The notes beneath the pieces were generated by a model that did not search any database, was not told the DNA's origin, and saw only the letters and a program-made list of their open reading frames with translations. A stretch of 63,990 nucleotides of DNA, counting the filler, from Collodictyon triciliatum (lineage: Eukaryota), in the NCBI GenBank assembly GCA_043381765.1. It is 7 parts of 7 records of this genome, joined end to end, with 100 filler letters (N's around TTAATTAATTAA, not from the genome) between each part and the next. Parts side by side here need not be neighbours in the genome. Positions count along the whole stretch, not along the records: positions 48,283 to 56,641 come from JBHJMP010002700.1; 6 more parts are not named here. One strand, 5' to 3'. Shown in pieces: positions 3,819 through 56,741 of the stretch. Within the stretch, counting starts at the first letter, position 1. The number at the start of each line of letters is the position of its first letter. A program made the position numbers and the translations under genes.

Positions 3819-6800
3819 CTAGCGCAATATCTTTTGGATTGCTTGTAAGGCTCGTCTTATTTCATCAATAGAAACGGAGTTTTTGGCATAGACATCAGGC
3901 TTATCGAGATTGTTGATTATCGGACCAGTTAGGCTGAGAGATGCAATCTTATGAGATAGGGTGTGGCTTTGCTTAGCTTCAAATTTTTTGATGTATTGGA
4001 AAAGAGCGCTTGTGGTATAGTTTTTGAGAAATCTTAGATTCGGGTTTGTTGCTATTCGAATTTCTTCTGCAGAAATCCGGAGAAGAGTTTTTACGTCGGT
4101 TTCATTCAGGTAATAATGATTTGTTATGTTCTGCTCGTTCACCTCCCCAATACTCTGCTGCAAATCTTCGATTGTTTCGAAATGGTTTTTTGCCATTTTA
4201 CATGCCAAAACAGGACAATTGTGATCAAGGAGAAACTCAACAAATTCACCTCTGTACATTTCAGAAAAATCACTGTAACGTAAAGTAATTTTAGTGGTAG
4301 CATTTTCTTTTAGGTACCTTCGCACATCTTCAAGCGGGGGGCGATAATGATATGTTTGCTTCCAGCATAGCTTAATTAAGTGCTGGAAAGATGCGGGAAC
4401 GTTCTCTGGTATTTCAGGTCGAAGCCCACTGATGGTGAAGCTTTGAGATTGGGATTCTCCAAGAAACGGCTCTACACCAGAGAAAAGGTACCAGAGAATC
4501 ATTCCAAACGCGTAGACATTGCTGGGCTCCCCGCGATGGCCGTAATTAACACCATCCTCACCATAATCAGAATCATCCCCACGTGGCTTGCAAACGGTAG
4601 CGTAGATTTCAGGAGCCTGCCAATTCTTTGTTCCGTCTTGTTTCATATCACCAAATCGAGTTTTCATATTTGAACCGACTCTATCAGTGGTACGGCGACT
4701 TACGATTCCGAAATCAACTAATTTTACGACATCATTAATTATCATAATATTATCTGCCTTCAAATCCTCATGATACAGGTCTTTGGAGTGCATGTAGATT
4801 AAAGCTTCACATATTTCTGTACAGAATTTCGTTATGCGCACTAAGGACATATGATTCCTTTTCTCACTCTCCATGATTTTTTTAAGGGATTCCCCAGCAA
4901 ACTCCATGACCATGTAAAAATCATTTTCGATACGTTTGACACCAAATAGATTTACAATATTACTACATTCCCTGCAATTATAGAGGAGTTGGCACTCGCT
5001 CACTAAGGATCCAATAATCGATGCCACAGAATTACTATTTCCAGATGGAATCGTCTGAATCTTGATGACGGCTTCTCTTTGTTCAGATGTCTTCGCTTTG
5101 TAAACTCGTCCAAAAGCACCACTCCCGATGTATTCTATTAGTTCTAGAGGTTCTTTGCACGTGATGTCCTTCAATTCCGAGTCGATAGTTTGAAGGTTTT
5201 TCTCTGAATGAAGCGCTGCAGGTGATAGTGGAGGTTTCTTAATAGTTCCCAATTTACTGTTGGATGCAAACAAATCATCCATGCCTGGTAGAAAAAATTC
5301 TCAAGTTAGATATAGACACGAAATACCCGAAATGATTTTATTAAATGGCAGGGACAGAAAATGAACAATAGATCGGAAAAGCTTCTGGAAGTTTGTACAA
5401 CAATACCCTCTTCTCGGTAAACATGCCCTCTTTTCATCCGATCGCTTTCGAGTTCATGACCTTTGGAGCATAAAGTCAGCTCAGAGTCGCCTATTTCTCT
5501 ATTTGGGTCGGGCAGCTCCACTGTATTCTTCTGGCATTCATAGCATTCCATCAGGCAGTATTTGATAAATTTTGATCGAATAGAGACAATTCGTTCTTTT
5601 AGAAAAGACAGGACCTTGAAGATGTCTATTGATTTTTGTTCTTTATCTTTCAAGTGATATCTTCGCACTCTTATTGTTACGATATTTTTGTGAATGTGCA
5701 ACAAGACACGAAGGTCATCTCCTGGAATAAGATCAAAAAAATTTTTGGAAGCAGATGATGAGGCTTCGTCAGCGTGTAGCTCAGATGTTGTCAAATGCAA
5801 AAGCGCTAAATTTCTTGAAAAATGGTTGTCGTACTTGATGTCATGGTTAATTCCTTTGGTCCAGCGAAGTGCCTGAACCATGATATTGCTACTGTCAGAC
5901 CTCTGGATATCTGTTTCACAAACTAAATCTATGGAGTTTTGAGACACGCAATTCGATTCCGGCTTTTCACTCCACACAGTTTCGATGAATGGGTGGTCTT
6001 CCATGAGTGATGGAAAAGCTATACACTCCTTGTTGAATCTTATTCCCAGTCCAAAATGATCAAAAATTCTCACGATTACAATAAAGACCTTTTCAAAAAC
6101 ATCTTCTTCCTTTTCCTCCATAACGGTCTTAAGTCTTGTCTTCAGCTGAGATATCAGGACAACTCCGTTGCTGTCCTTTGCGATTCCACCAAAACTAAAG
6201 ACACAGCGAAAAATATTGATGAGGAAGAGAGGGTCCAGGAAGACGAAGGCTCTCATGCTTTCGGAAGGATACCAGGCTATAGTACCGAGGTCATGAAGAA
6301 ACTTCAACGCCGATCTGCATCTGTTGTTGTTCAGATCAACATATTCTTCTGCATAGCTATTCACTTCGTCGATTGATAGATATTTATGTTGCTTTCCTTC
6401 CTTTTCAAAGTGGTCTTTCATAGTGATGTATGATTTGGGAATATCTGTGTTGACATTATCCAGCTGTTTCATTCCTTTGTAGATAGTATCCTTAAGCTCA
6501 CGTATACCATTTCCACTGCTGTTGCTTATTTGTAAATCATGTCGTAAAAAGGTGTGCCTTTTGTTATTCTTTATTATGTAATCTATTTCCGTTTTCATCT
6601 CGCCTTCACATCTAGCTATCAATTTGTCTTTATGGGTTCCAACTATGATGATTTTTGAACCAGGTGCAAAATCGTCCAACATCTTTATCCAACGACCTAA
6701 GTTGTTTTTGCTCTTATTTTCGTCCAATCTGTAGAGAATTAACACAAGTGCACCAGCCGAGAGAAAAAACGGATGTGTGACCTGAAATTCATCTTGTCCC

Positions 6801-9800
6801 CCAAAGTCCCAGACTTGAATTGATATGCCATCCTTTGGGGTGCCCATTGAAAGATCATGTACGTCAACAGCAATTTGCTCTATGCCGTCTGTTCGCTTTC
6901 TTTCAGGATCGACAGAGTTTTTGAATACAAAAGACTTCTGTGAAATCGACTTGATTGTTGTTGTCTTTCCTGCCATTCCCTCTCCAAGAAGCAGTAATCT
7001 CCCTTGCGTCCATTTCTGTGTTCCCGATTTTAGGGCGTACAAGTAATTAGCGATGGATTCTGAACCTTGATTAACCACATTTTCAGGTATGTTGGTAATT
7101 GGGTTGCCTTTCAGGTCAATATCTCCATATAATTCCTTCATAGAACATATAACATCAGGAACCACCGATATCTAGTAGAATTATGCCTGTTATTGTCTGG
7201 CTATTCATCGGTATCTTTGGATTCCAAAATAAAATATAGAATTAAATCTTTCCGAGGAACACCAAAGAACCTTATTGTTTGCGAGGTACAGGCTATGGAG
7301 ATTATGTAGCGTAGAAATTGATTCTGGAATTTCTTTGATCTGTATTTTGGTATCATAGAATTTGGAAAATAATTCGCATGATTTCTTTTTATTTTATTTT
7401 GTTTTGTTTTGTTTTCTTTTGTTTTGTTTTCTTTTGTTTTCTTTTGTTTTGTTTTCTTTTGTTTTGTTTTGTTTTGTTTTGTTTTGTTTTGTTTTGTTTT
7501 GTTTTGTTTTGTTTATTTATTTCTAACTTTCTATATTCATTTATATTTTTAAAATGTATGTTAGGTTTTGCATGGGGACTTATGATGACATCGTAAAGCA
7601 TAAAATGATATATATTTTATAGCAGTGACCTTATTATTTGACAAATTAAGAGATGTGACCCAAGGCATTTCCATGAGATGAGATGGAAATGCGCTCATCT
7701 TATCGAATGAATATAAGGTAAGATGTTATTTTCTGAAATGGAATATATGGCAGAGCATCCCAAAATAAAAAGAAAGAGAAAGGATGAGGCTAGTTCGGAG
7801 GAAAGAGTGCTACCATACCTCATTAAAAGAAAAATCGACTGCGCGTTTTCTTGGTAATAGAAAAATTTCGGGCGGTATATCCTTTAATTTCTTATGAGTA
7901 ATAGAGATGCTCCCTCCTCGGAATGATAAAGAGTTGTAGATGTCTTGTGTTTCAGTAGAAAAGTTGTTATCCGAAAGACTCAAATTTGTCACCAAAGTAA
8001 GATCGAATAGATTTGGCAAGGCAGAGACCTACATCCACAAATTATTGCTTTTTATGAAGCTTGCAATATAATTAGTATAGAGGAAGAGAAGTCGATATAT
8101 TAACCTTGTTGACAGAGACATTCAAGTGTCTAAGTTCCACCAATTTGTTTATTCCTTCTGATAGATGTGTTATCTGATACACAAATTTGATTATGAATAT
8201 ATGATATAGTAAATCATGAGATGAAAGGAAATTCAATAAAGCCTTTTATTTTGTTTTACGATTCGGGCTTAAATGATGTATGTTTTATCTTCATAACGAA
8301 ATATTCTTAAAAAAATCAATAATACACCTGGTTGTTATTGAGAAGGAGCTTTTGAATGCAATTCAAGATTGATATTTGCTCTGGTACATATGATAACTAC
8401 CGAATAGATTTGTTTCCAAAAATTATGTCAAGAAAAAAAAGTCAGTCAGACTGACATACGAGTTGATTTTTGGTGAACTTTTTTAGTTGAAATTATGAAA
8501 TATGGGTACCTGGTTCCAGGAGAAATCCAGAAGTGTGATGCGAGTTATCTTCAGCAAGACATGGGGTATTTCAACAAACTGGTAGCGAATTCGGTTCATT
8601 AGTAAGTGTGCGGTGAACTAAAAATCTATGTTTTTATCCAATATGTATAAATGTTTAAGGTTATGTTTTTTTCCATAAAAGAAAAAAGAGGCACTAAGAG
8701 AGAAAGAAGAATGACTATGGTCCAATAGTATGAAAGTTGAAAATAAAATATTAAATAAAAAAAACCTGGTTTTTGCTGAAACTTAGGCTTTGGATATTCT
8801 CCAAGGCTGAAAATGAAGTGGGCAAGCTCGAGAGCTAATCATATTTGTATTATACAATTAGGTGATAATAAATATTTGGACTATAACAATAAAGACAAAC
8901 CATATTGCAAGAAAAGTCTATGGATTTAACGAGACTCCATCCTTGCATCAGATGATCAATTTTTGGTAGCGTCATGTTATGATAAGAACACTGAAACAAA
9001 TCCAAGGTGTGAAGCGACTCAGATATCGTAAATTTTATTCCGCTCCAGGTATTCTTTTTTGTTTTGTTCCAGCAAGGTAGAACCCTCATGCCTTCTTGTG
9101 CTCTCTTAAGTTCTATGGTTCCGTTTACCTCAATCCAAAGTTGCTCCAATCTACTTAGGCAGGTCATGCCCTCTGGAAGTGTGTCCATCTATTGACATAA
9201 TGAAGTATGGTAATATTTAATGAAGAAGGAGGGGGACGATAGAATATGTACCAAAAGGAAGGGTAACAGAAAGAAATAATTCAGATAAAACGAAGTGAAA
9301 TGAAATGATACTAAATTGCAACCTTATTCCTGTAGAGACTAAGATAAGTAAGCTCAACTAATGAAGAGATTTCCTTGGGCAAAGAGGTCAACTCATTATT
9401 ATGGAGTGAAATCCAATTCAGATGTATCAATCTTGATATTGTACCGGGTAAGAAGCTTAATTTGTTGTCATTCATCCAAAGCTCTTTTAGCGCGCCCAGC
9501 ACGGAGATGTTTTCAGGAATTGATGGTATTTGGTTGTAAGCCAAATCCAAAATTTGTAGCGCTGTATATAAAATAACAGCTCTCGGGAACTCGGTGTATA
9601 TGATTTTTGGGGTGGCTGTTGTGGTTTTTGCCGTGGGGGGCTTGTTCATTGTCCCAAAACTTTGCTCAATGACGTTGTCTTTGTAAATGTAATGGTTGGC
9701 CGATACTCTGAGATGTGACATACCGGCCAAAGGCTGGGAGACTTCCGAACCCTTCAAAACTTCGATTTCTTTCCACTTACTAACATTTGCATCCAACCTA

Positions 9801-10201
9801 GCGAGATCAATTCGCTGACTACCAGACTTTTGACTCTTCAGTTTAGCAAGCATCCCTATCTTCTTCTTTGAGCAGATGACAACATTACCCTGAACCCACA
9901 CCGTGTCTTCTTTCTGGGTGCTAGGATCAAAATTGTCCCAGTGGATGCTTAGGCCTTTGCAGATTTTGTAGTCAGAGGTAGACTTTTCCTGATGGAAGCA
10001 CCTTGGGTAGGCAAGGCTGGCATTTTCTATACCACGCAGGTAAAGAACTTCTTCATAGGACTCATTCACGGGCTGAGTTGGCATCAAGTCTTCGGAGGTA
10101 GATGCTTCATCTGGGTCTACGATAGCCAGTGGAATGTGTTTCGTCTGCTGCTGCTCTTGAGATCCGCCGCTGAACTTCCGGGAGGCCCATCCAGTAGCCA
10201 T
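3819..10201 (-). CDS. Roco-family protein kinase (LRR - ROC GTPase - COR - kinase - two SAM-like repeats); possibly 5'-partial
   Basis: Exons 10201-9323, 9188-~8901, 8834-8766, 8578-8510, 8396-8328, 8173-8105, 8028-7819, 7698-7630, 7339-7271, 7171-5407 and 5284-3819 join in frame at GT-AG. ROC motifs GEGMAGKT, TDG, WDFGGQ, VGTHKD; COR motif LKFLHDLG; kinase motifs IGSGAFG, VIK, HEDLKADN, DFG, APE. An acceptor-like TTTGTAG directly precedes the first ATG. Confidence 0.92.
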
Positions 10202-31683: not shown

Positions 31684-33554
31684 CCGCCTGATTCAGAAGA
31701 CCGTCTTTGCCCTGCAGGAGGCCAAAAGTGTAAAGTTTCCGGACAAAACACCCCAAATGTGGGACGCGGCGGGGCGGGCTGAGAGGAGACGTCGCGCGGT
31801 TGGATCATAGCCAGGGAGGGAGTGCAAAAGTTGTGGAGTGGCAAAGACCGCCTTCGGAACGGCAATGGAGAAATAAGGAAGAAGCTCTGTCTTGTGCCCG
31901 ACTAAGCCCTTCTAGATTCACAGAAGGAGCGGAAAAAGAAAAGAAAAGAAAATAAAGGAAAAGAAAAGAAAAGAAAAGAAAAAGAGTTGTGTGGTTGTCT
32001 GTGGCTTGGAATCTGCAGCGCTCAAGCAGAATATGAGTCGAATGTTTGCGGCCGAATGGTGGGGGCAGCCTGTGTCTAAGGAGCCGCGTGACTCCGACTA
32101 GCCCGAGGCGTACACCGACTGTTCTTTGGCTCCTCGCCCTGCACCCCCTTTATTTGCCTTGGTTTCCTTACGCCTTCAGGCTGCGTCAGTGGCTGGCGTC
32201 TGTGAAACGCGGGCGGTGGTTTGGGGTGTGGCTGAATTCCAAATAAGTGTAATTATGAAATCTAGATCAGACCACATCCATAGTGGGTGACGCTCAAAAC
32301 CGGATACTTTTCTATTGTGGAATGAATGTAGTGCGTGACGTCATGGACATACGTTCGCCACATGAAGCACGCAATTTCCTGGAATTTTTCCAGATTCAAT
32401 TCCGTTCTTAATTCAATGGTCTCTTCCGGATTTTTTTCAATAAGGTATTCCAAATAATGGTCAAAGTTTTGTTCTTGGATGAATTGGTGCAACGTGGTGC
32501 GTGAATGGGGGATATATATATGGATGCCGGCTGCCGAGGGAATCAATTTTGCATAGGGCTGCGCCGTGTGAAGCGGAGAACTGAATAACGCACAAGCAAT
32601 TGCGGAAAAACATCCGGCCATTTTTCCAATTCTGGCGAAGTTGCTATTCAACCCAGACCATCACCAGCCCGCGAGCAACCGCAAGTTTGGATCAGTGGTA
32701 TTAGTATTATGGGGTTGGTTGTGGGTGCGACTAGCTCGCTTTCGTTGGCAAGCCATGGGACTCTTAGGTGGGCTACCACCATACCGCTCGGTAGCGCCTA
32801 ATAGCCGGGTGTAGCGCATTATAATGGAGATATAAAAAGCTGATTTCAAATAATTTTCACCGCCCACGCAAGTCTTCACACCCTGCAGCCCGCTCATTCA
32901 CCCACACACCCACAGTCTGTCGGGGTTGGAGAACGCTGCCCGACAGAAGCCTGTCTGCCCTGTCCCACCACCACCAACAACAACAACAACAACAACAACA
33001 ACAAAATAACAAGCCTCGACCCGATCATTGCAAACAGGCGGCAGCACCGTCATACCCACAGGGGATAACCCTTGGAGTGGTGCCACCTTCGCTGGGATCA
33101 AAGCGCACCTCTATACTCTCGCCTACGAGGCGACCTTCTACCTTCTCCTCCTTTATCTCTATTTATTACTTTCTATTATTGTAACAAAGTCGTCTCACAA
33201 GTCGCCTTGTTTCGCTGGTTATACGAGGTCACCTTGTTCCATTTGCTTACCGCACGCATATCCCCGCAATCCGTGCCGATCAACCCCGCTCCTTTCTTTT
33301 TTTCTTTCTTTCATTCCTTCTCTCCTGCCTGCCTGTGCGGGTGTGTCGTCACCTCGAAGCAAACAAAAAGAAAAAAAGAAGACAAAATACGAGAGAAAGA
33401 GCCAGAATTGTGGAAAGGAGATAGAGGGGCAAAGTGTGAGTGACACGTGTCTCCTCCACGCCCTGTGACCAACCCCTGCACTAACCCTCTCTCCCTCCCT
33501 CCCTCCCCCTGCCGAAGCCAACGCACCCGCCTCGAACGCGCGACTCCCCTCCCA

Positions 33555-34563
33555 ATGGCCTCCCGCAAGAAAGTCCTGATCAAAGTCATCATCCTCGGCG
33601 ACAGCGGGTAAAGCCACGCTCCTCCAACATGCAACGCCCTATGTCCTGTGTCCTTCAACCGACTCACTCAAGCCACGTACTGACCATCCACTCCTCAACA
33701 CACAGTGTCGGAAAGACCTCCCTGATGAACCAATATCCTTTTGCCGCGACCCCACCCAGATCCCTCCCTCCCTCCCTCCCTCTCTCTCTCACTCCCACTC
33801 TCTCACTCCCACTCTCTCACTCCCACTCTCTCCTCCACACACCGCCTTCCACTAACGCACGCACACGCTCCTTAACCACGCGGCACGTACGTCAGCAAGA
33901 AGTTCAACAGCCAGTACAAGGCCACCATCGGCGCAGACTTCCTGACCAAGGAGGTGATGGTCGAAGACCGCCTGGTGACCATGCAGGTACGGTACCGTCC
34001 CATGGCCCCCACCCCCCACCCCGTGTCTGACAGCCGCTCACTAGATCTGGGACACAGCCGGACAGGAGCGCTTCCAGTCGCTGGGGGTGGCCTTCTACCG
34101 CGGGGCCGACTGCTGCGTGCTGGTCTTTGACGTCAACAACGCAAAGACCTTTGAGAATCTGGACAGCTGGCGCGACGAGTTTCTGATCCAGGCGGGCCCA
34201 CGCGATCCCGAGAACTTCCCGTTTGTGGTGCTGGGCAACAAGATCGACTCTGATCAGCACCGCGCGGTCTCGGGCAAGCGAGCGCTGGCCTGGTGCCAGG
34301 GCAAGGGCAACATCCCGTTCTTTGAGACGTCTGCCAAGGAGGCCATCAACGTCGAGCAGGCCTTCCAGACCATCGCAAAGAACGCCCTCAAGCAGGAGGG
34401 CGAGGAGGAGATGTGCGTGACCCTCTTTCTTTTCCTTTTTCCTTCGCTCTTTTCCCTTTTCCCTCGGAATGACACGCGTCTCCCCCACAGGTTCGTACCG
34501 GACGTCATCAAGGTCGACGGCGACAAGAACAGCTCGTCCAACTCTGGCGGCTGCGGCTGCTAA
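33555..34563 (+). CDS. RAB7: Ras-related small GTPase Rab7 (5 exons; intron 2 is U12-type)
   Basis: [18 protein letters not shown] | VGKTSLMNQ | [27 protein letters not shown] | [35 protein letters not shown] | ..GGCGC* (CxC prenylation motif). Confidence 0.97.
33733..33886 (+). other. U12-type (minor spliceosome) AT-AC intron, 154 nt
   Basis: 5' ATATCCTTT, branch site TCCTTAAC at 33869-33876, 3' CAC. Removal restores the conserved SLMNQ-YV sequence. Confidence 0.92.
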
Positions 34564-35624
34564 GCGTGCGACCACCGTCCGCCCCGGGCCTACGCCAACT
34601 GCACCGCGTCCCGTCGATCCCCCCTCTCTCTCTCTCCCTCTCTCCCTGCCTTGTCCCCTTTCGCCTTAACCCTCCCTGTCTCGCTTTTGTTCCACACTCC
34701 CCACCAAGCAGCGCCCCGGCCTCGCTCTTTCTCCCGCCCTCCAGACCGAAGGGGCCCTGTTCAGCCCGTCCACCCGTCTGCCCTTCCTTGTGATTGACCT
34801 GGAACTAGAATCAATCCCGAGCAATTTATAAACGCTGTCTCCATCAAGTTCTCTCCGACGCTGCACCTCCCTCCTTCAACTTCTCCAGCTCCGATGCTCT
34901 TGCAGACAATTTTTTTTTTCCTGTCCAGGACACACCAACACGATCCACAGAACGCCTACGTTAATGCCAAACTGGAGTCTTTTCTGGAATTTATTTATTT
35001 ATCATATTCCATTTAATAGAAATCGAAGTATAGTGAACCGAATAAAAAAAATTAGCTTCGATTGCAGTCAGCCATACACGATGTGCATTAATATCGTGGT
35101 GCTGCAAAGTGCCATGTCAAATTTAATCCAGCGCATCTAAACGCCAGCTTGCGCAAAAACAAAGCACAAACAATTCAATGAATACATCCATATTGGCTGG
35201 ATACTGCGTCACATATACAGAACAATGCCCCTTTCAAGATTCTAGAACAGAAAAAGTTCTCCCGTCGTCCCTTCTTGCCAAGCTTCCAAGAGTTTCCTAC
35301 GGATCGAATAAAGGATAAAAAAAAAAAAACTTCCCAGAGCTTCCGTGTGTGTGCGCGTGTGTGTCGCCACAACCCAGAGTTTTATAACCACACATGTATT
35401 ATCTTGTTCCCTTCCCCTCCCTCTCCTTTCTTTTCTTTTTCCCTTTCCATTACTTCTCTCCCGTTTGTCATAAAGCCCAGGTATCCAATCCCCTAAAGAT
35501 TATGGGCAGCTGGTACACCTACTCCGTATCATTATTCACATACATCTTAGCCCTGTATTATCTTCTCTCTTTCTTTCTGCTCCAACCAATCAAACACCTA
35601 CATGCCCAAACAACAGAGGCCAGG

Positions 35625-37186
35625 ATGGAGAAAGCACATACCAGAGTGTGTCGCGTGATGAACCACTTCCACTTGGATGTGCGCAGCAAATACACAAATA
35701 ATCGCTCTCAGCCAATCGACTGTGGTGGCCGACACCAGGATGGTCTCCTGACGACAGAGCAACTCGAGTTCTACGATACAAACGGCTTCATTGTCATCCC
35801 TAACCTCTTAACCTCTGAACAAGTCGCCTTTTATTCTGAACGCTTCTTGGATTTATCAAGCGGTGCTCTGGACCGACCTCCAACTATGACAGTCATGCGG
35901 GATGTCGCTGCAAAAGGAGTCGAAAAAACTCACGAGCGTACAATCACAAAGTTTCAGGATTTTATGGACGAGGAAGGTCTATTTTCTTACTGTGAGCTGC
36001 CAGCCATCCTAGACCACGTCCAGGAGTTTATTGGCTCAGATATCATGGCTATGCATACGATGTTCATCAATAAGCCTCCGGTATCTCTTTCTTTCCTTCT
36101 TTCCTTCTTTCCTTCTTTCCTTCTTTCCTTCTTTCCTTCTTTCCTTCTTTCCTTCATCCTTGATTCTTTCTTTCTATCGTTTCAAGCCTCGATATATCAT
36201 ATCCATATGACACATCTCGTTTATCATAAATCTCAATATGTATATTTTCCTTTATTCGAATCCCAATATAGGTTTAAACTCTCACATAACTAGTTATTGA
36301 ATGCGTTTTATGAAACACATAAATACCGATTCTTTTTTCTTTAAGAAACAAACATTTTTCTATTCTTTTCATTTACCTTTTATCTATGTCCGATACGCCA
36401 TTTATATGTATTTGATTCCAATCTTACTGAGTGGGCTTCCTTCATATTATTTGCGTAGGACCTTGGACGCCAGACCTCGCGCCACCCACTCCACCAGGAT
36501 TTACACTATTTCCCCTTCCGCCCAGCAAACAGAATTGTTTGCGCCTGGGCGGCACTTCAGGTTTGTTTTTTTTTTTTCATTCACTTTTTTCTCTCGCCCT
36601 TGTATTTTTATCTGACAAGTACTCTTATGAATAGAGAATTGACCGCTCTAATGGTTGTCTTGTCGCGTTGCCCGGGTCACACAAAGGAGAGTTGTTGGAA
36701 CACGACTACCCAGACGTACACTTCTGCTTCTAGTTTTTCAACATTTTTTTCGGGTTCAAAACTCAAAGAACGGTCCGCTATGTCCTATAACCAACACATA
36801 AATACTATCTTGCCATGCGAATTGATACATGCCTTTCTCAACATTAGTGGGAAGGGGGTGTAAACAAAGCATATCATGGAGTCAAGGGTATCGGAGCAGA
36901 CCCAGGAAGAGTTTATCTTGAAATGAATGCTGGAGATGTCGCTTTCTTCCATCCGCTCCTCATACATGGCTCTGGTGCCAACAAGACAGATGGGTTTCGA
37001 AAAGCCATTTCATGCCATTATGCTTCCTCTGAGTGCTGCTACGTCGATGTTGCAGGAACCTCGCAAGAGACAATCGCCCGTGAGATTGAGGAGATGGCTG
37101 CACGCAAAGGAATTGAAGGAATGTCCTTTCAAGACGTCTGGCGTTGGAAAGGTCGCCTTGTGCGCGGAACTAAGGTCTCACTCTAA
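35625..37186 (+). CDS. PHYH: Peroxisomal phytanoyl-CoA dioxygenase
   Basis: PTS2-like [30 protein letters not shown] | ..[19 protein letters not shown] | ..[13 protein letters not shown] | ..[25 protein letters not shown]. The Fe-binding HxD..H motif is intact. Confidence 0.93.
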
Positions 37187-38879: not shown

Positions 38880-41107
38880 TTAAGAGAAACTTTTCCGTTC
38901 CTCTTCAAGGTCTTCCAATTGAACGATGTTTCCCACGGCCTGTATGAATTCCTTCTCAAATTCCTCATCTGTCTTCACATCATCGGTCATGGGAAGTGAG
39001 CGAACTTTTTCGCGATGGATTCGCAACTTACTGATGTAGCCATCAAATGAAACTCTCATTTCTTCTAAACCAGGAGAAATATCCACATCTCTCTGGCAAG
39101 ACTCCACCAGCTGAACCCTTATCTTTGTTTTCAAGCTCTGGAGTTGCTCGTTTAATAATCCCAAGTGGTTCTTGTTCGAAAATACTCGGTCCTCCAGAGA
39201 CCTGACCTCTACTTCACTGCTGGCATATGAATTTGACACAGCTTCCTCGCCTTCTCGACCGATTTTCATCTTCTTTTTGGCTTCGAGCTGCAATTCGTTC
39301 TCTTGAAGCTCAGATTCAATCCTTTCGATATGTCGGGCCAATTCGCTTTCGAGCTCTTGTATCAGCTTTTCGAGGTCGTTTTTCCCTCGTTTTCCTTGAA
39401 CATGAATTCTTTTCACTGACTCGACCATTTTTCGAAAACTGCTGAATTTCTTTTCAGCCGAGCGCAAAGTATTTTTCGCAATGACAGAGTCAATAGCCTT
39501 TTCCTGTCGCTCTCGGCCAAGTGGCTCCAATATTGCCTCAAGTTCAACTATATCACTGTCAAGAGTTCTTCTACATCTGGAAGCAAGGCTGAGAGTTCGA
39601 ACAGAGCTGTCGTCATTAGTACGAAATGTATTAATATCTGAAAGGACACCATTATATCTTTGGGTGATTTCGCGCTCCTGGCTGGTATCCTCCTCGGATG
39701 CGACAACAAATGCCGGCATTACTGGAGCCATTTTAATCCGCAGCTTTGCAACCGGAGATTCAGCAGGATTGCTCCTTTTATTTTTTATTTCTGCGATATC
39801 AGACTTGATTCTGCTAAACTGACTTCGCATCGCATCGGGCCATAGGTCGATATGTGAGAGTTTCTTTACGATGTCATTGTTCTCTAAGTTAATTTTTTCG
39901 GCCAGGGGCTGAATGTCCTCCAACGTCTTATTTAGCATCATATTTACGAGCTGAATGACGGATTGAAAATACCTCTGCAATTCATCTGCTTTGAGAAGGT
40001 CATCATCCGCTCTTTTGAGACGGTCTAAAACAACGTTTGATGAGTCTGACTGTATCTTATCAGAAAGCATATTTCTCTTCTGCATGCATCGGCAGATACT
40101 TTTCATAAGCTCGTCGTATTTCCCTTGAATATTGTCTATATGTTCCTGGAAATCAACCACATTGGCTGAGATGCTATCCAGAATGTGTCTAAGTGTCGAC
40201 AGGCGCTGATGTGTTGTGGTGGAAAGCTGTTCCCGCTTTGATTCATACTGATTTAGCTTCTTGAGTGCCCCTTTCACGTTTTCAAGATGTTCATCCAGTA
40301 TATCTGGGCTCATTGCTGGCATGCTTGCCTCGACCTCTTCCAATGCCTTCAAGTCTCTGTCTAATGCCAACTTCGTTCGTTCAAGTATGCTAACCAATTG
40401 TGTGTCTTCCGCATGACTCTTTTTGATATGCGATAGTTGCATTTCAGATTTTGAGAAGCGAGTTTGAACTTCTCTTTCGCGCTCCGTCAGGTCATCTGTG
40501 CCCACCACTAACATCGGTATGTTTGCAACAGAACCATGTCGAGTTATGGCCTTCACTTCGGATGGTTCATCAAAACTAAGGACGATGGCACTTGTCGACT
40601 GCCTTTCATTAGACTCAGCAAATAAGACCGGGTCGCTTGCTTGGTCTTCGTTTCTTCCGACCAATATAGTTTTTTCTTCACCCTTGTTCCGATTTGCACA
40701 GCTTTCTGCTGCCTCTGGTTAGGTTATGAAAATAGAGTTGTTCGTTTTCACAGTGGTAAAACTATAATTGTGTATTTTTTTTGGAAATAAAGTACTGGTA
40801 AATTCAAAGCGAACCTATCAAAGTGGCGCCGCTATTATTTTCAGGCTGGACATTTGTGTGTGGATATGAGTCTTTTATGTTTGCAACGAATGATACCGAT
40901 ATGAGTGGCGTATCTCCAATGTCCTTCTTTCCATGCTCAAGCTTTTTCTTCTGCTCTTCATTGGCATTCGTTGTGGGTGGTGTAGAGCCAAGTGGACTAA
41001 TCCCTTGCTTCTTGTCTTGTGCGTTGGATATGTGCAGCTGCATTTCCGCGTGTGTTTGTGTTGGATTGGACTTCTTTACAGGGGGTGATGCGAGCGGGGT
41101 GGCGGTG
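38880..41107 (-). CDS. Coiled-coil protein of unknown function with an internal duplication (5' part runs into an assembly gap)
   Basis: 594-aa uninterrupted terminal ORF (38880-40664) plus an upstream exon at about 40813-41107. Confidence 0.75.
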
Positions 41108-41108
41108 A

Positions 41109-41590
41109 NNNNNNNNNNNNNNNNNNNNNNNNNNNNNNNNNNNNNNNNNNNNNNNNNNNNNNNNNNNNNNNNNNNNNNNNNNNNNNNNNNNNNNNNNNNN
41201 NNNNNNNNNNNNNNNNNNNNNNNNNNNNNNNNNNNNNNNNNNNNNNNNNNNNNNNNNNNNNNNNNNNNNNNNNNNNNNNNNNNNNNNNNNNNNNNNNNNN
41301 NNNNNNNNNNNNNNNNNNNNNNNNNNNNNNNNNNNNNNNNNNNNNNNNNNNNNNNNNNNNNNNNNNNNNNNNNNNNNNNNNNNNNNNNNNNNNNNNNNNN
41401 NNNNNNNNNNNNNNNNNNNNNNNNNNNNNNNNNNNNNNNNNNNNNNNNNNNNNNNNNNNNNNNNNNNNNNNNNNNNNNNNNNNNNNNNNNNNNNNNNNNN
41501 NNNNNNNNNNNNNNNNNNNNNNNNNNNNNNNNNNNNNNNNNNNNNNNNNNNNNNNNNNNNNNNNNNNNNNNNNNNNNNNNNNNNNNNNNN
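41109..41590. other. Scaffold gap
   Basis: Run of N without the TTAA linker. Confidence 0.98.
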
Positions 41591-48282: not shown

Positions 48283-48835
<553 letters not shown>

Positions 48836-48993
48836 TTTGGGCCAATATGCAAAGCATGAGGCAGTTCATTTAGTGGCTTCAGGGGCTCTGGCCGTAGCAT
48901 AGGCGAGAAGTGTGCAAAGAGGAAAAAGGAAAAGGGAGAAAGAGAGAAAAGAGAAAGAGAGAAAAGAGAAAAGAGAGAGGGAAGGGAAAAGGG

Positions 48994-49092
<99 letters not shown>

Positions 49093-49674
49093 AGGAGAGA
49101 CTTTCTGTTCAGTCCCTTCCACGAGCGCAGCCCGCGTGATAACCACAGTTCATGCACTCATCAAAAAGTCACGCCTTTCGTATGTGTCAAGATGGCGCTT
49201 GCAGATAGGAATATTGGGGGAAAAAAAAAAAAACATTCGAAATATATATGTGGAATTCATAATGATCTTGCCTACTACTCTAATATACTTTGTAAAATCA
49301 ATATCTGACGAATATTCTACATATTTAACACATCCAGATTATATAACCGAATAGCGGAGGCAACCTGAATCAAGATCACGCTTATCAATCTCAACACTAC
49401 CTCTTCGGATCCAACGCGCCTGAAAAAAAGAAAACGACCAACGAGAGAACAACAACACCAAAAAAAAAAAAAAGAATCAAGATCAGTGTGGAACAATAAG
49501 CCCACCCCGCGATAGAAACACGAAACAACAGCAAAGGATCACGTCTCGACCCACATCATCAACCCAGCACATCAATAAATAAAAATAACAATAATAATAA
49601 TGATAATAAAAAAGGGGGCACAAATAGGACAAACAAACAACCCCAGACGAGAGAGCCGCAAGAAACAAGTAAGG

Positions 49675-50188
49675 ATGTGGAACTACGTTAAGAGCTTCTT
49701 TGGATATTGCGAAGAGAAGACAGAAGGGGAAGCAAGGTTATTCCCACACAAATATAATAATAATAATAATAATCATAACCGTCACGCATCCGCCTTCATC
49801 GCCTTTGATATTGAAAGCAGACTCTAAAACACACAGACACACAAGCACACGGGTGGCTGCGGCTGCGACAGAGCCCGAGACTATTATCCCGCTCATTGTA
49901 GAGTAAGATAAGCATGAATCAGCCTCATATCGCCATTTCATGCGCTTTCCTAAGGCTTCCTTCCGAGCTGCTTCGACTCACTTCCTGGGCTCTATTTCCA
50001 GAGTCCCGCCAAACCATCCGCTAGCCGCGTGGAAGAAAGCACAGCTGCTGAATGACCCAGGAAACAACGAGTTGCTTTTTGTAGACGAGGACGGCTTTGA
50101 AGCCAACGAGTTCTTCATGGCCACTCTGGGCGGCGCATTCTACCGCATTCTGTTTAATCGCCCCAGCAAGCAGCAGAGACAATCGTAG
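49675..50188 (+). CDS. Small hypothetical spliced protein
   Basis: Coding-like segments MWNYVKSFFGYC.. and ASFRAASTHFLG..FYRILFNRPSKQQRQS*; the splicing phase was not resolved. Confidence 0.35.
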
Positions 50189-50670
50189 GCGGGCTCTACT
50201 TGTGCTGTGCTTTGACCTGTGTATCCATCATCAATGTCTTGTTTGTTTTGTGTGTGTGTGTGTGTGTTTTCACTCTATCTTCGCGTGTTGGAGATTCTAA
50301 AATAGCCTCGTTCTCTTGCGGCTGGCTGAGGTGCAGTTATCAGAAAATGGCAAAGGCCACAACATAAAGCGAATGAACAGAAGATTCTCAGTCTAACCTG
50401 CTTTGGCGTCCTGTCTGCTGTCTAGTGTTTGGTTATGCGCCCATTTATTATTGTACAAAAGGCAATGTGCTATATCAGAGTGGTCTCTTCTGGACTTCGT
50501 TCTGGTGGTAAAGACGAGCGGTGGATTCAATCATATTTGATGCCCAGCAAGACAAAGCGATATGTGCAGGATGGGAGGGCGAGTGTGGAGTGGATTGCGA
50601 TGCTTTGGTAGGAAATAACAGCAGGGTCATTCAAGACATGCCATCTTGTGGCGATGTGGACTTTGGAGGC

Positions 50671-52828
50671 CTAGCTTCGAGCCGTGTTTGCTCGTGGCGT
50701 GCTTACGCTGCGACTGTTTGTGATATATGCATACTTTGGATATTAGTGTTTTTTGAAATATTCGGAATATATATCATCATCATCATCATCATCATCATCA
50801 CCCATAACATATGAATAAAAACATGTTAAGAAAAGGAGAAAAGAGAGCAAGATTAAGGTCAAATACATAGTGACTGCATATATGGCTGGAAGTATACTAC
50901 GAAAATGATGTACAGAGTACATATCCACCAAACAAGATATGATTTCTGCAGTGATTGTGCGGTTACCTTGAACGAAGTGGCTGGCGGGCAGATTTCGGCC
51001 CATAGTCCCGCGAGGTTTTACTAGGCAGGTTCAGTGTAGGAAGCGTAGGCTTTGAAGAAAAATATATCGGGTGTTTGAGGTCGACGCGTGTGATTTGGAG
51101 CAATTAACGAAAGAAAGAGAAAAAAGGATGGCATAATTAGAATAAATTAAAAATAAAAACATAATTAGGACGATGTATGTATACTGCATGTCCGTGTGAT
51201 GACTTTGTATCGTAGAGTTGCGAGTTTTTCATCGTTCCATTGTGCGACTGGCTTTTCAGGTCGATAATTTCGTATTCTCCTGGACCAAGGTCACCAGAGG
51301 ATGGGAGTGGACCAAATTGATTAATGAAGCGGTTTGACCTACAGTAATCGAAAATGAAGTCCGAAGGTTTGGTAATCGAAAAACGTCGAGTCGAGAACCT
51401 CTCAGTAAGGTTTAGAGAAGGATCAGAGTTTGCAATCATCTATGGAGTTTGATAGTGGAAGGAAGCAAAGGAATATATGTGGTGATTAAGTATACTTTGG
51501 AAAGACACAAACACCGTTGTTGGGAAACGTCTGCGCACGCGAGTTGATTGCATCGTAACTTCCGGGACCAATCAACGGCTCTGTCCTGAATTCTCAAAAA
51601 TTAGACTAAAACACACTTTAGTACTTCCCACATGCGTTAGATGGGTCATGCGAGGCATTATGGCCCATAAGAGGACAACTCAACGATAGTACAGCATGGA
51701 GGTTTTGTAATGCAAAGTGATAAAGTGCACTTTGTACGGTATTCGGTATCACCGGGAAGCGAAGTCACTATGCGTGGTGAGTTCGATGCAAAACTCAGAG
51801 TGTGTCTCTTCGTGGTGCATGCTTTATAGCCTGGGTCGTAATCACCGGGCCCGACTTCCTAAATGTGTTTTGTTTGTATTAAATTTTATCAAGAAAATAA
51901 GGCTTCCATGTGTTGCACTATAAATGGCTCCGAGTTTGATGGTGAAATCGGTATTAGGCGGAATGGAGAATGGTATACTTGTTGAGGCGAGCAAATACTT
52001 ACAACATCATTCTTTATGTGTTTTCGAGGAGAAGATTTGAAGCTGCTTGATGCCCGAGAAGGGTCGTGAATGTTGATTGCAGAGACGACAGACTCATACT
52101 CTCCAGGTCCTAAATTTTATCTCGATAGTTAAACCAAGGAAGTCAATACACAAAGGTAAGTTGTAATCATATTTGCATCAACCATTGAAGGGGCCTGGTT
52201 AGGATGTGAAAATAATATTCATGCGAAGGAAAACTTAGTAAATGCTCTCATTTGAGCTTTGAGTCATACCAAGAGTTGAGGGAACATCAGGGAATCGAGT
52301 GATTTTGGAGCGAAACCCAACGCAGTAAGTTTTATACTACGTATTTCCCATATGGTCATTAGAAATCAAGGGTGTATTAATAAACAGGAATGTTTCTTTG
52401 AACAAAAGGGGTTTTACAAGAACCATGAATGGACGCGTTCATAGGACAAGTAAGAGATGTCACTATTTGAATGAAAACTTTGACTTTGTATAAATGAAGT
52501 AAATACCCTCAATGCAGGGTCTCGTAGGCTGTAGGAATCAAGACTCCTATGAGGAAGAGATGCAGTGACCGCCTCTATGAAGAAAAGAAACGATATTAGA
52601 CCCAGAAAGAGCATCAAGTTTCAATTTCAGATACACTTTATCTTTGAGGTCAGACTATGGGGGTATACAATCTCTTGAATATTTGAAAACACCTCGCACT
52701 GATGATGTGAAAAAGAATTCAACAAGCCCAACCATCCATACATCGAAGGTTACATGGAAGGATGGTGTAATGATATCATCTGTGTTGATAAGTTCCGGAT
52801 TCTGGTACTGGATCCTCTTCAGCTCCAT
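50671..52828 (-). CDS. SHIPPO/STPG (ODF3-like) PGP-repeat protein, probably axonemal
   Basis: Separate exons encode TLGPGEY, EVGPGDY, LIGPGSY and DLGPGEY repeats with intervening SF-x-S-x-x-PR-like segments. Gene ends are approximate. Confidence 0.7.
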
Positions 52829-52870
52829 GATTACTTTGTGCTCAGTTACCTTCAATATAATGTAAAATAT

Positions 52871-53602
52871 TCAACTGGCTAGTATGTGGATCTGTGAGTA
52901 ACCAAACGCATAGATATAGGCCGATCAGTATCATTGAGGTCTAAAGATGAAGATAAAGATGTCAAGAAAATTCAAAACTCACGCCCATGATTCCAAGAGC
53001 CGCGTATGTTGATGTGGTTTCTTGTACGGAAATCATACCGTCTTCGTCCGAGTCCGTGTATACAAACACTTGCTTTGCATGCGACTCGAGGAAGTTTATA
53101 AACGTGTATAGATCCATGCTAGAAAAAAAAGTGTGTGACTCAGATCAGTAAAGCTACAGATATAGAGATAAAAAAAAAGTATTCTACTCGCACAGTAAAT
53201 ATTGCTTACTTTTCTGAGATTTCTTCGACAGTCATTGTCTGAACGCCAAACTTTACTACCAGGGCCTTGAATAGAGAACACATGATTGCGTTTACAGGGA
53301 AGGAACCGATATGAAGGAGAGAGAGAGAGAGAGAGAGAAAGAAGCATAATAAAAAGGTAAAGTAAATAGATGGGAGACTTGTTACCCTTCAGCCTTGTAT
53401 AGAAACAAAAATATAAAGATAAAAAAAAAACGTAGACAATAACCCGATGGAGTGGAATATGAAAAGGTCGGTTGAGTATTTGCTTAGAAGTAAGGCATAC
53501 GTAGACTTCCTCAGGCATCAGATAGCCTCTGCCCTGTTCATCGGCACGGACAAACTCTCGTTGCAGATAGCGGTAACGTGCCCGTGTCAGCAGTGCGCCC
53601 AT
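52871..53602 (-). CDS. Small EF-hand protein with a possible N-myristoylation site
   Basis: MGALLTR..FVRADEQGRGYLMPEE | ALVVKFG.. | ..VFVYTDSDEDGMISVQE..IMG | IHILAS*; two EF-hand-like loops. Confidence 0.65.
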
Positions 53603-53814
53603 TTGCCTTCCTCCTTGCTTCTTCTGCCGGTGTAAAAAGAAGGGGAAAAGGGACCTGCTTTCAGTCTGCTTCTCGCTGGGCTGTCATGAGTTGTGGACAA
53701 AGTCTGATGCGGCTGCGCGAAAGGCTCGGAGGCCAGATCGGATGATTTTTTGTTGAAACATAGCCGTTGATCTAATGTGGAAATTAATTTGTTTGCTTAT
53801 TTATTTTTATGTAA

Positions 53815-54170
53815 ATCTGTATAAACCATACATTGTGTGATTTTTATACAAAAAAGAAACTTTATAATAAAATTAAGAAAAGATGCCCACATCCACTCGA
53901 CAATTCAGTCATCCCGGCTTCGTTTGGTATGAAATCTGCCTCTATGTCAACCCAACCCCATGTTGGAGGAGTTGCGCTTTTGTGCTGTCATCTGTTTTAT
54001 TTACTAGGAGTATACCAACTTTCGATTGGCAAGCCTGGTGTGCTAGCATCCAAGGTCTCCCTGCTTTTTTCACAAAGAATGTGTAGTGGCAGAGGCTGCC
54101 AGGAAAGACCCGACAGCCTGTTTTTTAGAGGAAGGTGTATGCATTTTTTGAAGGATTAAAAGAACTTTCT
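53815..54170 (-). ncRNA. Candidate Fanzor omegaRNA region
   Basis: Overlaps and follows the Fanzor 3' end, with stem-loops at 54093-54119, ~53952-53966 and 53818-53850. Boundaries are inferred. Confidence 0.35.
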
Positions 54171-56010
54171 TGAGTATATTATTAGCGCTGTTAAAGTCTC
54201 TTGTCAAGAATACACTTGGTTTGCTTTCTGGGCGATTGCATTCTTTTACATATGAGACATCTATATACTTTTTTGTATTTCCTTTCAGTGCTACATATTC
54301 CAGCTCTTTTTCGCAGTTGCATCATATCTTGTAGGTTCTAAATTCATCTACACTAACTGTTTCAAAACGTTTGGATAGTATTTTTCTCGTAATACTCTTC
54401 CGATTATTGGCATAAAATGGTTTCATCAGAGATTTTCTGCTCCAGTCTCCACACGCCAGTACAGCATCCTTGCCGAATGTCTTTTTGATTTGGTCCATAA
54501 ACAACTGTTCACTTCTTTTTGTATTAACATGCTGTCTCCATACCATCTTTCGAAAAGTTACTTCATAAAATCTGGAAAATTCTATCTGGTATCTTGATTT
54601 CATAGATACATATCCCCGAAATTTTTCATAATCGAACGTGCATGGGTTATGTTTACTCAGTTCTGTCTCTAAATCGATTAAAGATACTCTTGATGTCTCA
54701 AACTGCTGATTCTCTTCAAAAGTCATGTCACCAAAAGAAACAGCACTTTGTAAATCTGTTGCCATGTATATTCCTGAAGCATTCTACTTTTTTTTCTCGC
54801 GCAAGAGTATTTTGTGATTTTTAAGAGATTTGCTATCATGTCCTGTTTGGTGTGCCGTGTAACGTGATTTCTTACCTGCCTCATCCACCATGTAAACCAA
54901 ATTAAACTTGCCTTCGTCCTCTCCAACTATTTTTTTTTTTCGCTAATAATGATAACTGCTCTTCGGAAAGTTCATCTATATAGACATATTCTTGAGTTTT
55001 TGATTAAATTTGGAATCTTAAGTTTGAAATACCTTTCTTTTTCAAACAATAATGACACCACCAAGCCGTCTGTTTGTATCATGTATTTAAAAGTGTAGTC
55101 TCTTTGATGAAAGACCCTCTTCTTCATTTCAAAGAACACATCCCATATGGTCTCTTTGCATCCTGATATATTCTTCAGTAATGATGCTTTTCCAGATGAT
55201 ACCAATATATCTATCAAACATGCAGTATCTGGAGTAATATGGCATGGTGTATTGTTAGTTCTTATAGGGATTGGTTGAAACAGTTTGGTTACAATGTCCC
55301 AAAAATGCGATTCATGTAAATCAGACATGGAATGTACTTATTTGGATTGACTTGGACGTCATATTCGATACCATTTAAAACATCGCTGGAATGATACGAT
55401 TCAAATGCATTATAGTCCATCATTTATATTGTTCCAGTATTTCGAGTTTCTTGAAGATAGCTTCTTTTTTTTTTAACTTTCGTAACTCTGTCTTTTTTAA
55501 TAGCTCCCGTAATATTCTCATCTTTAGGAACTGTTTGATTTATTAAGCGCAGTAGCCTCTTTACAAAATATTCCTTAATGTTATTATGATAAGCTGTTAA
55601 CATTTGCTTCGCCAAGTACGGCAGTACATGAGACAGTCCAACCAACGGAAAGCGTTCTTCTCAGGACAAAAGGAATCGAAAATCGTAGAGATAAAAAAGT
55701 CATCATGTCATCACTCATATTTGGTTTTTTTAAAAAAACTTGTGGTTCTATCTTGTGAAACAACCCCGACTGTCTTTAAAGCGTACAAAAACTTTTCATC
55801 GATTGTTGGGAGTTGTTGTGATTTCAATATGCAACATCTTACAAACAGATAAGTGTCGGTAACCAAATTATGCCACAATAAAACCGTATCGTTGATTTTG
55901 TCATAGTCATCCGCATTCTTTACAATCGACTTCAGAGATGTTTTCAGATTTCGATAGTCTGGTTTTACAGACTTCAGATTCTCAAACTCAAGACGTTTTC
56001 TTTTATTCAT
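54070..56010 (-). pseudogene. Fanzor1 (eukaryotic TnpB-family RNA-guided endonuclease), frameshifted and with stop codons
   Basis: Intronless fragments in several frames: KTSLKSIV..TYLFVR..LPTIDEKF; MLTAYHNNIKEYF; FKYMIQTDGLVVSLLF; RuvC-I IVGEDEGKFNLVYMVD; ETELSKHN..YEKF..FRKMVWR..FGKDAVLACGDWS; RuvC-II VDEFRT; RuvC-III LTRDFNSANNI. Confidence 0.85.
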
Positions 56011-56210
56011 CTGAAAGTCTTTGTTTTACTTTTTCCTTTAGAAAACTACCAAGTTTTTAATTTTAATAAAAATTTTAGTCAATTAGTCAATTTAATAATA
56101 AAAAAGAAAAAAACTGCATAAAATCAATTCAGGTAAAATCATGCATCTACCGAGGCTTTCATAATATGCGCATTGTGGCAAACAAACGCACAAAGTATTT
56201 TTGTAAGCGA

Positions 56211-56240
56211 CTAGCAAGAGTACCCGTGCTTCGCAGCGAG
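56211..56240 (-). mobile_element. Helitron-like 3' terminus
   Basis: The minus strand reads CTCGCTGCGAAGCACGGG (imperfect GC hairpin), 8 nt, then CTAG followed by T. Confidence 0.45.
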
Positions 56241-56548
56241 AATGATAAAAGAAAAAAAAAGAAAAAAGAAACGGATAAATAAATCAGAGCAACTAATACT
56301 GAGCACCATATTCATACTTATCTTGTTACCTGAGGGTCGATGGCTAGAGCTTGAGGCCTTTCGGCCGTTCTTCAGGTGTCTCTTGTTCTCTTCGATTCCT
56401 TGCACGGATCGCTTGGTCATGGAGCCTTTCATCTCCCTTTGCTGTCTTTGTCTATCGTAAACCCGCATCTTTGCTAGTCTGCGTCCCCTTTCTTCAGGGG
56501 TCGCATTTTTCCTATTGACCTTTGCAACACCACTTTTCTCTCCCTCCT

Positions 56549-56641
<93 letters not shown>

Positions 56642-56741
56642 NNNNNNNNNNNNNNNNNNNNNNNNNNNNNNNNNNNNNNNNNNNNTTAATTAATTAANNN
56701 NNNNNNNNNNNNNNNNNNNNNNNNNNNNNNNNNNNNNNNNN
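56642..56741. other. Artificial contig spacer
   Basis: N44-TTAATTAATTAA-N44. Confidence 0.98.

Follow-up and report, generated by a model that had tools for sequence, protein, structure and literature searches.

The decayed Fanzor1 gene of Collodictyon triciliatum

Fanzor1, an RNA-guided nuclease of the RuvC type, descends from TnpB and occurs in eukaryotes and viruses. A decayed gene of this family is found in the nuclear genome of the freshwater protist Collodictyon triciliatum (GenBank assembly GCA_043381765.1), on the minus strand of positions 54070-56010 of a stretch of 63,990 nucleotides, here called the window, in which seven parts of seven records of this assembly are joined end to end with 100 filler letters between each part and the next; the gene lies in the part that comes from JBHJMP010002700.1 (positions 48,283 to 56,641). 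The original prediction, made from the sequence alone, had placed a decayed Fanzor1 gene at these positions, and it was confirmed by the full-length collinearity of the region with P0002, an intact metagenomic protein of 648 amino acids encoded on a contig of 2,610 nt, and by five stops and about 11 frameshifts that interrupt the reading.

The coding region starts with an ATG at 56010-56008 and ends with a local stop at 54072-54070. In a frameshift-aware alignment, residues 1-643 of the 648 of P0002 correspond to window positions 56010 to 54079 as one collinear read, with the same residue in 401 of 638 pairs (62.9%). No intron-sized gap occurs in this alignment, in agreement with the earlier description of the gene as intronless. 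A tblastn search of P0002 against the window gives an E-value of 1e-123 and finds no second Fanzor1 copy within it, and the G+C content of the region is 34-37%. The six motifs on which the prediction was founded, i.e., KTSLKSI, TDG, IVGEDEGK (RuvC-I), GDWS, DEFRT and RDFNSANNI, have all been located, in their order, in the minus-strand translations of 54070-56025, where they are distributed over three frames.

The N-terminal region (55918-56010, minus strand) carries a basic start, MNKRKR, which reads MKKRKR in P0002, followed by the conserved KTSLKSI; the MNKRKR sequence is possibly a nuclear localisation signal. In the RuvC-I motif IVGEDEGK (54904-54927, minus strand) the catalytic Asp is retained, and the Pro usually present in G-x-D-P-G, already described as replaced, is exchanged for a Glu at codon 54915-54913; this Pro is invariant in 40 of 40 full-length relatives, whose alignment and profile are hereafter referred to as A1. 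The RuvC-II motif VDEFRTY (54331-54348, minus strand) retains the catalytic Glu and has a Tyr in place of the near-invariant Ser559, and the RuvC-III motif RDFNSANNI (54175-54201, minus strand) retains the catalytic Asp in codon 54198-54196. The complete triad D...E...D, contributed by GEDEG, VDEFRT and RDFNSANNI, corresponds to the invariant A1 columns D364, E555 and D604. In total, the window copy holds seven of the eight invariant and 26 of the 31 near-invariant sites of A1; the changed sites are P365E, R388T, E391D, G539V and S559Y, and E236 falls at a frameshift.

The site of the four-cysteine (C4) zinc finger, located between RuvC-II and RuvC-III, is recognisable yet destroyed. Its first Cys (C562), three codons past RuvC-II, is replaced by the TGA stop 54324-54322, C565 is retained, and the second CxxC becomes readable only once two frameshifts close to it are allowed for. 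Along the whole gene there are five in-frame stops (TGA 55663-55661, TGA 55422-55420, TAA 55006-55004, TAG 54786-54784 and the TGA 54324-54322 just mentioned) and 11 frameshifts (near 55746, 55700, 55513, 55386, 55300, 55043, 54940, 54420, 54389, 54276 and 54247), so that no Fanzor1 protein can be produced from this copy, which is very probably a dead gene.

Assignment to Fanzor1

By homology, the gene is a Fanzor1. A read-through of 290 amino acids from window positions 54073-54942, with X at two stops (P0001), matches the solved Fanzor1 chains of Parasitella parasitica (9cf0, E 1.9e-7) and Spizellomyces punctatus (8gkh, E 9.6e-5). An exhaustive protein search with the same read-through returned 1,047 proteins at E ≤0.001, many of them of 600-700 amino acids. 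P0002 came from a search of longer proteins, and when closer relatives of middle length were sought, only two appeared, with 58% and 41% identity. The A1 profile matches 9cf0 (E 1.5e-96), 8gkh (E 3.8e-94) and the chain of Guillardia theta, 9cer (E 7.3e-77), nearly end to end, over profile positions 7-592. The match to Fanzor or TnpB, on which the original prediction had been staked, is thus given by the solved Fanzor1 proteins, which the family profile covers in full, with E-values from 1e-96 to 1e-77.

The other chains reaching E ≤0.01 with A1 are only LaTranC and Cas12m, which match through the zinc-finger region alone with E-values of 3e-4 to 3e-3. TnpB, of the IS200/IS605 and IS607 elements, and Fanzor2 are similar to Fanzor1 in having a RuvC fold and in being RNA-guided nucleases carried by transposons, as outlined in the sections of the survey drawn on here (PMC10432273); they differ from the family of the window in that no chain named TnpB or Fanzor2 was found with the A1 profile at E ≤0.01, the presence of Fanzor2 chains in the PDB copy being unchecked. 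The solved Fanzor1 proteins (8gkh, 9cf0, 9cer) share with this family the full-length domain order, the RuvC D-E-D, the position of the zinc finger and a length of about 600-650 amino acids. Their genes are cellular and intact, and an omegaRNA has been demonstrated for them, whereas the window copy is broken and an omegaRNA was not found at it.

A Pfam search of six pieces of the gene and of the 290-residue read-through gave no match, the Pfam copy used being one that lacks PF26935. The relatives carry PF26935 (DUF8286) both in the protein database and in ESM-Atlas, and the window copy belongs to the Fanzor1 subfamily labelled with this name in protein databases. The terms DUF8286 and PF26935 were not found in the literature searched; the supplementary tables of the 2023 surveys may list the subfamily.

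Other copies of the family

The original prediction had also supposed that intact copies exist elsewhere. This was borne out in part, by the intact P0002 (about 63% identical) and by copies 80-99% alike to the window sequence in public sequencing runs, which are better preserved. Contigs of four public runs (X1-X4) were aligned to the window stretch at 80% likeness; no public run contains more than one tenth of the sampled words of 53600-56400. In X1, labelled as a single organism that may not be the species of the window, 370 contig pieces fall on the stretch, 25 of them at ≥99% likeness, 89 at 95-99%, 140 at 90-95% and 116 below 90%, with as many as 18 different contigs over a single place. 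The summed depth of X1, which is not equal to copy number, is 200-300 over 54070-56043 and 45-65 over 56044-56400, and it drops from about 210 to about 6 below 54070. On these counts, and because the X1 contigs pile up on 54070-56043, thin out upstream and nearly vanish below 54070, the gene is assigned to a diverged multicopy family, of which the window copy is one decayed member.

The sequence common to the copies extends beyond the gene on its 5' side. An upstream non-coding stretch (56011-56351, minus strand) is common to other copies of the family, and four X1 contigs depart from the window sequence at 56351. The 3' flank (53897-54069, minus strand), the expected place of the omegaRNA and of the element end, is common to few other copies, one X3 contig extending to 54019 with about 90% likeness.

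The same contigs allow the lesions to be compared between copies. At position 55663 a G is present in seven of seven X1 contigs, six of six X2 contigs and most X3 contigs; this G converts the TGA stop to CGA (Arg), which is the residue of P0002. Position 54332 is a G in most other copies, restoring Ser559. Furthermore, indel differences of other copies coincide with the window frameshifts near 55299, 55038, 54385 and 54244/54247, and the single X4 contig over 55299 has the state of the window, X4 being possibly the window's own source. The contig comparisons are evidence that several lesions are probably private to the window copy.

These data also bear on the possibility that the organism has an intact gene, whose breaks in the window derive from assembly or sequencing errors, an explanation that we consider extremely improbable. 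About six of the 11 frameshift places are runs of at least five identical bases, so that some of the frameshifts may be assembly errors, and the window contains many N gaps and long homopolymers. Against this, the five in-frame stops, which are of three kinds, are substitutions and not indels, and this argues for real decay; moreover, conserved positions are substituted, and X4 agrees with the window at 55299, with the reservation on its source given above.

As for the environment of the host, X2, a freshwater metagenome, has a contig of 216 nt that covers 53683-53896, outside the gene, and departs from it at three of 214 nt, so that this sample contained the host or an organism closely related to it.

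Relatives in giant viruses

An alignment of eight sequences (A2) was scanned against IMG/VR, where 375 of 401 candidate stretches encode relatives. Eighty loci were kept (L001-L080) and, with the addition of a metagenome locus of the Joint Genome Institute (JGI), L081, 81 loci were fetched in all. Each of the 80 viral loci contains an intact, single-piece open reading frame (ORF) of 555-634 amino acids. The best of them are 44-47% identical to P0002, and the lineage formed by the window copy and P0002 reaches at most 47% identity to anything in IMG/VR. Among the JGI metagenome contigs, P0002 found only one distant locus, L081, with 21% identity.

The genomic contexts of these loci are those of large DNA viruses. 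In L005 the major capsid protein of nucleocytoplasmic large DNA viruses (NCLDV) and VLTF3 lie no more than 7 kb away, the neighbours in L004 are an mRNA capping enzyme and a SNF2 helicase, and L001 is accompanied by ribonucleotide reductase (RNR), Hsp70, DnaJ and DUF5755. The ESM-Atlas clusters closest to P0002 (score 0.99) are 92-100% Viruses, mostly Nucleocytoviricota. P0002 scores 517 bits with L001 by tblastn and is distant from the three solved cellular Fanzor1, with 85-102 bits by phmmer; the two programs differ, and the gap is large. Among the viral proteins themselves, 75 of 80 (L006-L080), coming from many giant-virus bins, are at least 70% identical to each other, and this mutual likeness suggests a recent spread between viruses.

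The viral genes are carried by elements of well-defined structure. These are delimited by a conserved terminal repeat, inverted and about 26 nt long (TTACACCYTT...AAAACGCC and the inverse form), at least one copy of which is present in 74 of 81 loci with up to four substitutions. The repeat pairs span 2.37-2.46 kb when the element contains only the Fanzor gene and 3.3-5.5 kb when a DDE_3 transposase is also present; examples are L034:7523-9912, L001:6638-9951 and L081:1972-4214. The DDE_3 transposase, of the Tc1/mariner-IS630 type and detected by tblastn in 31 of 81 loci, has an HTH_28 domain and in L001-L004 is divergent and located about 320 bp upstream of the Fanzor gene. The outermost TA at the element ends would fit a Tc1/mariner target duplication, the search pattern having included those letters. 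Between the 5' repeat and the start of the Fanzor gene, a small K/E-rich ORF of 86-92 amino acids is found in 52 of 81 loci (e.g., L034:7607-7885 and L081:2048-2308). Two further observations concern the repeat: the Fanzor gene of L081, despite its 21% identity to P0002, is bounded by the same terminal repeat as the viral elements, and in a giant-virus contig a pair of the same repeats only 375 bp long (L046:5944-6318), without room for a gene, looks like a miniature non-autonomous derivative.

In the last ~180 nt of the viral elements the DNA is conserved beyond the stop codon. The 3'-end alignment (A4, made of L001:9772-9951 and 12 others) folds into two helices with compensatory changes at eight of 18 pairs, one helix pairing with the terminal repeat; the consensus energy of the fold is weak (-8.3 kcal/mol). 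Such a structure fits a candidate omegaRNA scaffold that ends at the terminus of the element.

Position in the tree and origin

A tree of 74 rows was obtained by a quick IQ-TREE run with support from the Shimodaira-Hasegawa-like approximate likelihood-ratio test (SH-aLRT) only; 61 of its rows carry no label, and labelled cellular Fanzor1 sequences are not among the rest. The window read-through and P0002 form a pair with SH-aLRT 100 on a stem of 0.65. This pair lies inside a clade of 19 rows (support 97), where its sister branch of 16 rows (support 99) contains the four nearest viral loci, and the next clade outward holds the remaining eight viral rows. In the 32-row part of the tree so defined, the rows of known origin are viral in 12 cases out of 12. 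In this phylogeny the window copy and P0002 appear as a distinct lineage, sister to the giant-virus subfamily.

The explanation that best accounts for the whole of these results, and one that we hold with good confidence, is that the window contains a dead Fanzor1 copy of a multicopy lineage that is sister to a giant-virus subfamily. The two are most economically linked by a horizontal transfer in which giant viruses served as vehicles: the lineage would have entered the ancestors of the host by this route, would then have increased in number within the nuclear genome as the passenger of a transposon, and the window copy would afterwards have decayed neutrally in an intergenic region. For the intact relatives, a protein working like the solved Fanzor1 enzymes may be envisaged, in which an omegaRNA from the 3' end of the element would guide DNA cleavage beside a short target-adjacent motif, and this guided cleavage would help the element to persist.

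Several observations weigh against this explanation. The pair formed by P0002 and the window copy stands beside the virus-containing clade, as its sister, and not inside it, on the long stem reported above, and a closer cellular clade is possible, the tree having no labelled cellular Fanzor1. P0002 is of unstated origin, and when used alone it matched no relative in IMG/VR. The evidence for many copies is limited, depth being different from copy number and the organism of X1 being coded, so that it may differ from the species of the window. Finally, the locus by itself gives no indication of a virus, because no viral repeat, DDE_3, small ORF, 3' RNA or nearby viral gene was detected there. In particular, the viral terminal repeat has no match in the window at up to three mismatches, nhmmer profiles of both viral ends give a best E-value of 3.8 in unrelated places of the window, and the covariance model of the viral 3' RNA gives a best E-value of 0.45, also in an unrelated place; the small viral ORF has no match near 56030-56400.

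The search for other traces of an element at the locus gave a similar picture. A DDE_3 transposase is not found in the window (best tblastn E 1.3) and the Pfam cut-off is reached by none of the 62 open frames of at least 70 amino acids in 48-62 kb, as expected from the earlier remark that no transposase is adjacent. Inverted or direct repeats around the gene consist only of low-complexity A/T pairs. Rfam returned nothing relevant for the window 3' flank, and the fold of 53880-54140 is marginally better than that of shuffled sequences (z -1.94). Recognisable transposon ends, a transposase and an omegaRNA-like 3' segment are no longer present at the window copy; its ends have been lost or were of another kind.

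The virus-to-host direction of the transfer is slightly favoured, because the gene is intronless and all its labelled neighbours in the tree are viral. The host-to-virus direction is also possible, because the branch does not fall within the viral clade, a cognate virus is not known and the locus is devoid of viral hallmarks. A related explanation, less likely in our opinion and still to be taken seriously, is that the lineage is native to cellular genomes, where it was carried by a host transposon, that giant viruses acquired copies from their hosts, and that the window copy owes nothing to a virus. The position of the pair outside its virus-containing sister clade, the missing hallmarks and the fruitless search of IMG/VR with P0002 alone would be explained in this way, as would the many diverged copies, which resemble an old resident transposon family. 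Conversely, this origin is at odds with the viral nature of the 12 labelled rows (in a tree where 61 of 74 rows are unlabelled), with the 92-100% viral content of the Atlas clusters closest to P0002, and with the lack of introns in the window gene, long-resident cellular Fanzors often having introns according to the portions of the survey used here (PMC10530073). The viral derivation of the family put forward in the original prediction is thus upheld as far as the subfamily is overwhelmingly found on giant-virus contigs, and is not upheld as far as the window copy is not nested in viral sequences and viral hallmarks were not detected. It should be added that "viral" and "transposon-borne" are not alternative origins for this Fanzor1, because the viral relatives are themselves transposon-borne.

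A further possibility is that a giant-virus genome once integrated here and that the stretch is what is left of it, with the Fanzor gene as the part still recognisable. The relatives are indeed viral, and integrated giant viruses with Fanzor-Tc1/mariner elements, together with an isolated Fanzor fragment in a chromosome of the host, have been reported in Chlamydomonas in the part of the preprint considered here (bioRxiv 10.1101/2024.09.03.611062). This explanation was already disfavoured and is very unlikely. The AT-rich block measures only ~2.5 kb and stands between host-type genes, filling the gap between two minus-strand host-type frames, of which one starts near 53605 and the other ends near 56300; no viral hallmark domain was found in the 62 frames of 48-62 kb nor in 20 larger frames tested across the window; and the other copies have in common only the gene and ~340 bp upstream. 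The locus gives no sign of a larger viral insertion.

A more far-reaching proposal, still speculative, can be added to the preferred explanation of a dead copy from a sister lineage of the giant-virus subfamily. The window copy and P0002 might represent an unsampled Fanzor1 lineage that passed from giant viruses to a protist of fresh water, where it would have reached many nuclear copies. Its intact members, such as P0002 with its full triad and basic N-terminus, might be RNA-guided nucleases that are still active, with an omegaRNA and a target motif of their own, and might be carried on a transposon different from the viral Tc1/mariner type.

Comparison with known systems

The association of Fanzor1 with Tc1/mariner elements common to giant viruses and their hosts has been published before, and the present case is one more example of it. 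In the sections drawn on here, Bao and Jurka (2013; PMC3627910) reported Tc/mariner elements with a Fanzor1 from giant viruses and eukaryotes, PGv-1 and PUl-4 among them, as well as Fanzor-only forms with mariner repeats and TA duplications, and proposed that viruses spread Fanzors. As far as those sections describe them, elements of the PGv-1/PUl-4 type are similar to the viral relatives reported here, with a Fanzor1 that is alone or together with a mariner-type transposase, inverted terminal repeats and TA ends; they are unlike the window copy, where repeats, TA-flanked ends and transposase were not detected, this comparison being by description and not by sequence. Two surveys of 2023 (PMC10432273; PMC10530073), in the parts used here, also report Fanzor1 in giant viruses, the association of clade 1c with Mariner/Tc1 and the presence of N-terminal nuclear localisation signals.

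Another parallel is that of Chlamydomonas. The part of the preprint cited describes an integrated giant virus with Fanzor families A-C, in which Fanzor genes are associated with IS630-Tc1-mariner or occur as Fanzor-only variants, and a degraded Fanzor fragment on host chromosome 17 (bioRxiv 10.1101/2024.09.03.611062). As in the present case, a Fanzor1 with IS630-Tc1-mariner in a giant virus and a degraded fragment in the host indicate sharing between virus and host. The difference is in the distance, since, on the figures given in that part of the preprint, the Chlamydomonas fragment has 80% DNA identity to a viral copy from the same host, whereas here the nearest virus has only 44-47% protein identity and a cognate virus is not known.

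A dead Fanzor1 copy is in itself ordinary, such relics being expected wherever these elements were active. The value of the window copy is rather that of a marker, indicating that a subfamily dominating giant-virus metagenome bins has a sister lineage that multiplied in a cellular genome, and it is a further instance of the selfish-DNA exchange reported for giant viruses and their hosts. For the discovery of compact RNA-guided nucleases, the viral elements, which are compact and have clear ends, a covarying 3' RNA and many intact copies, may prove more useful than the window copy.

Surrounding genes and minor observations

The sequence upstream of the gene was also inspected for promoter words. 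Near-matches to AAAATTGA, which we take to be the early-promoter word of mimivirus, occur 75 and 83 nt upstream of the window ATG; they were discarded as meaningless, the word being upstream of none of 76 viral Fanzors.

Runs of N, long homopolymers and microsatellites are present in the window, for instance at 41100-41580 and 56600-56740, with at least 50 T before 56600, and these tracts show a gapped, repeat-rich assembly. The insertion in a nuclear genome that had been proposed is consistent with the setting, the locus lying between intron-split cellular genes. Those found in the window encode a LRR-Roc-COR-kinase (ROCO), a Nop-domain protein, a Rab-like GTPase and, in two frames, a phytanoyl-CoA dioxygenase (PhyH). 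The ROCO gene is intron-split on the minus strand at 3819-10201, and the genes for the Rab-like GTPase and PhyH are at 33485-37186, where each extends over several frames and the G+C content rises up to 59%.

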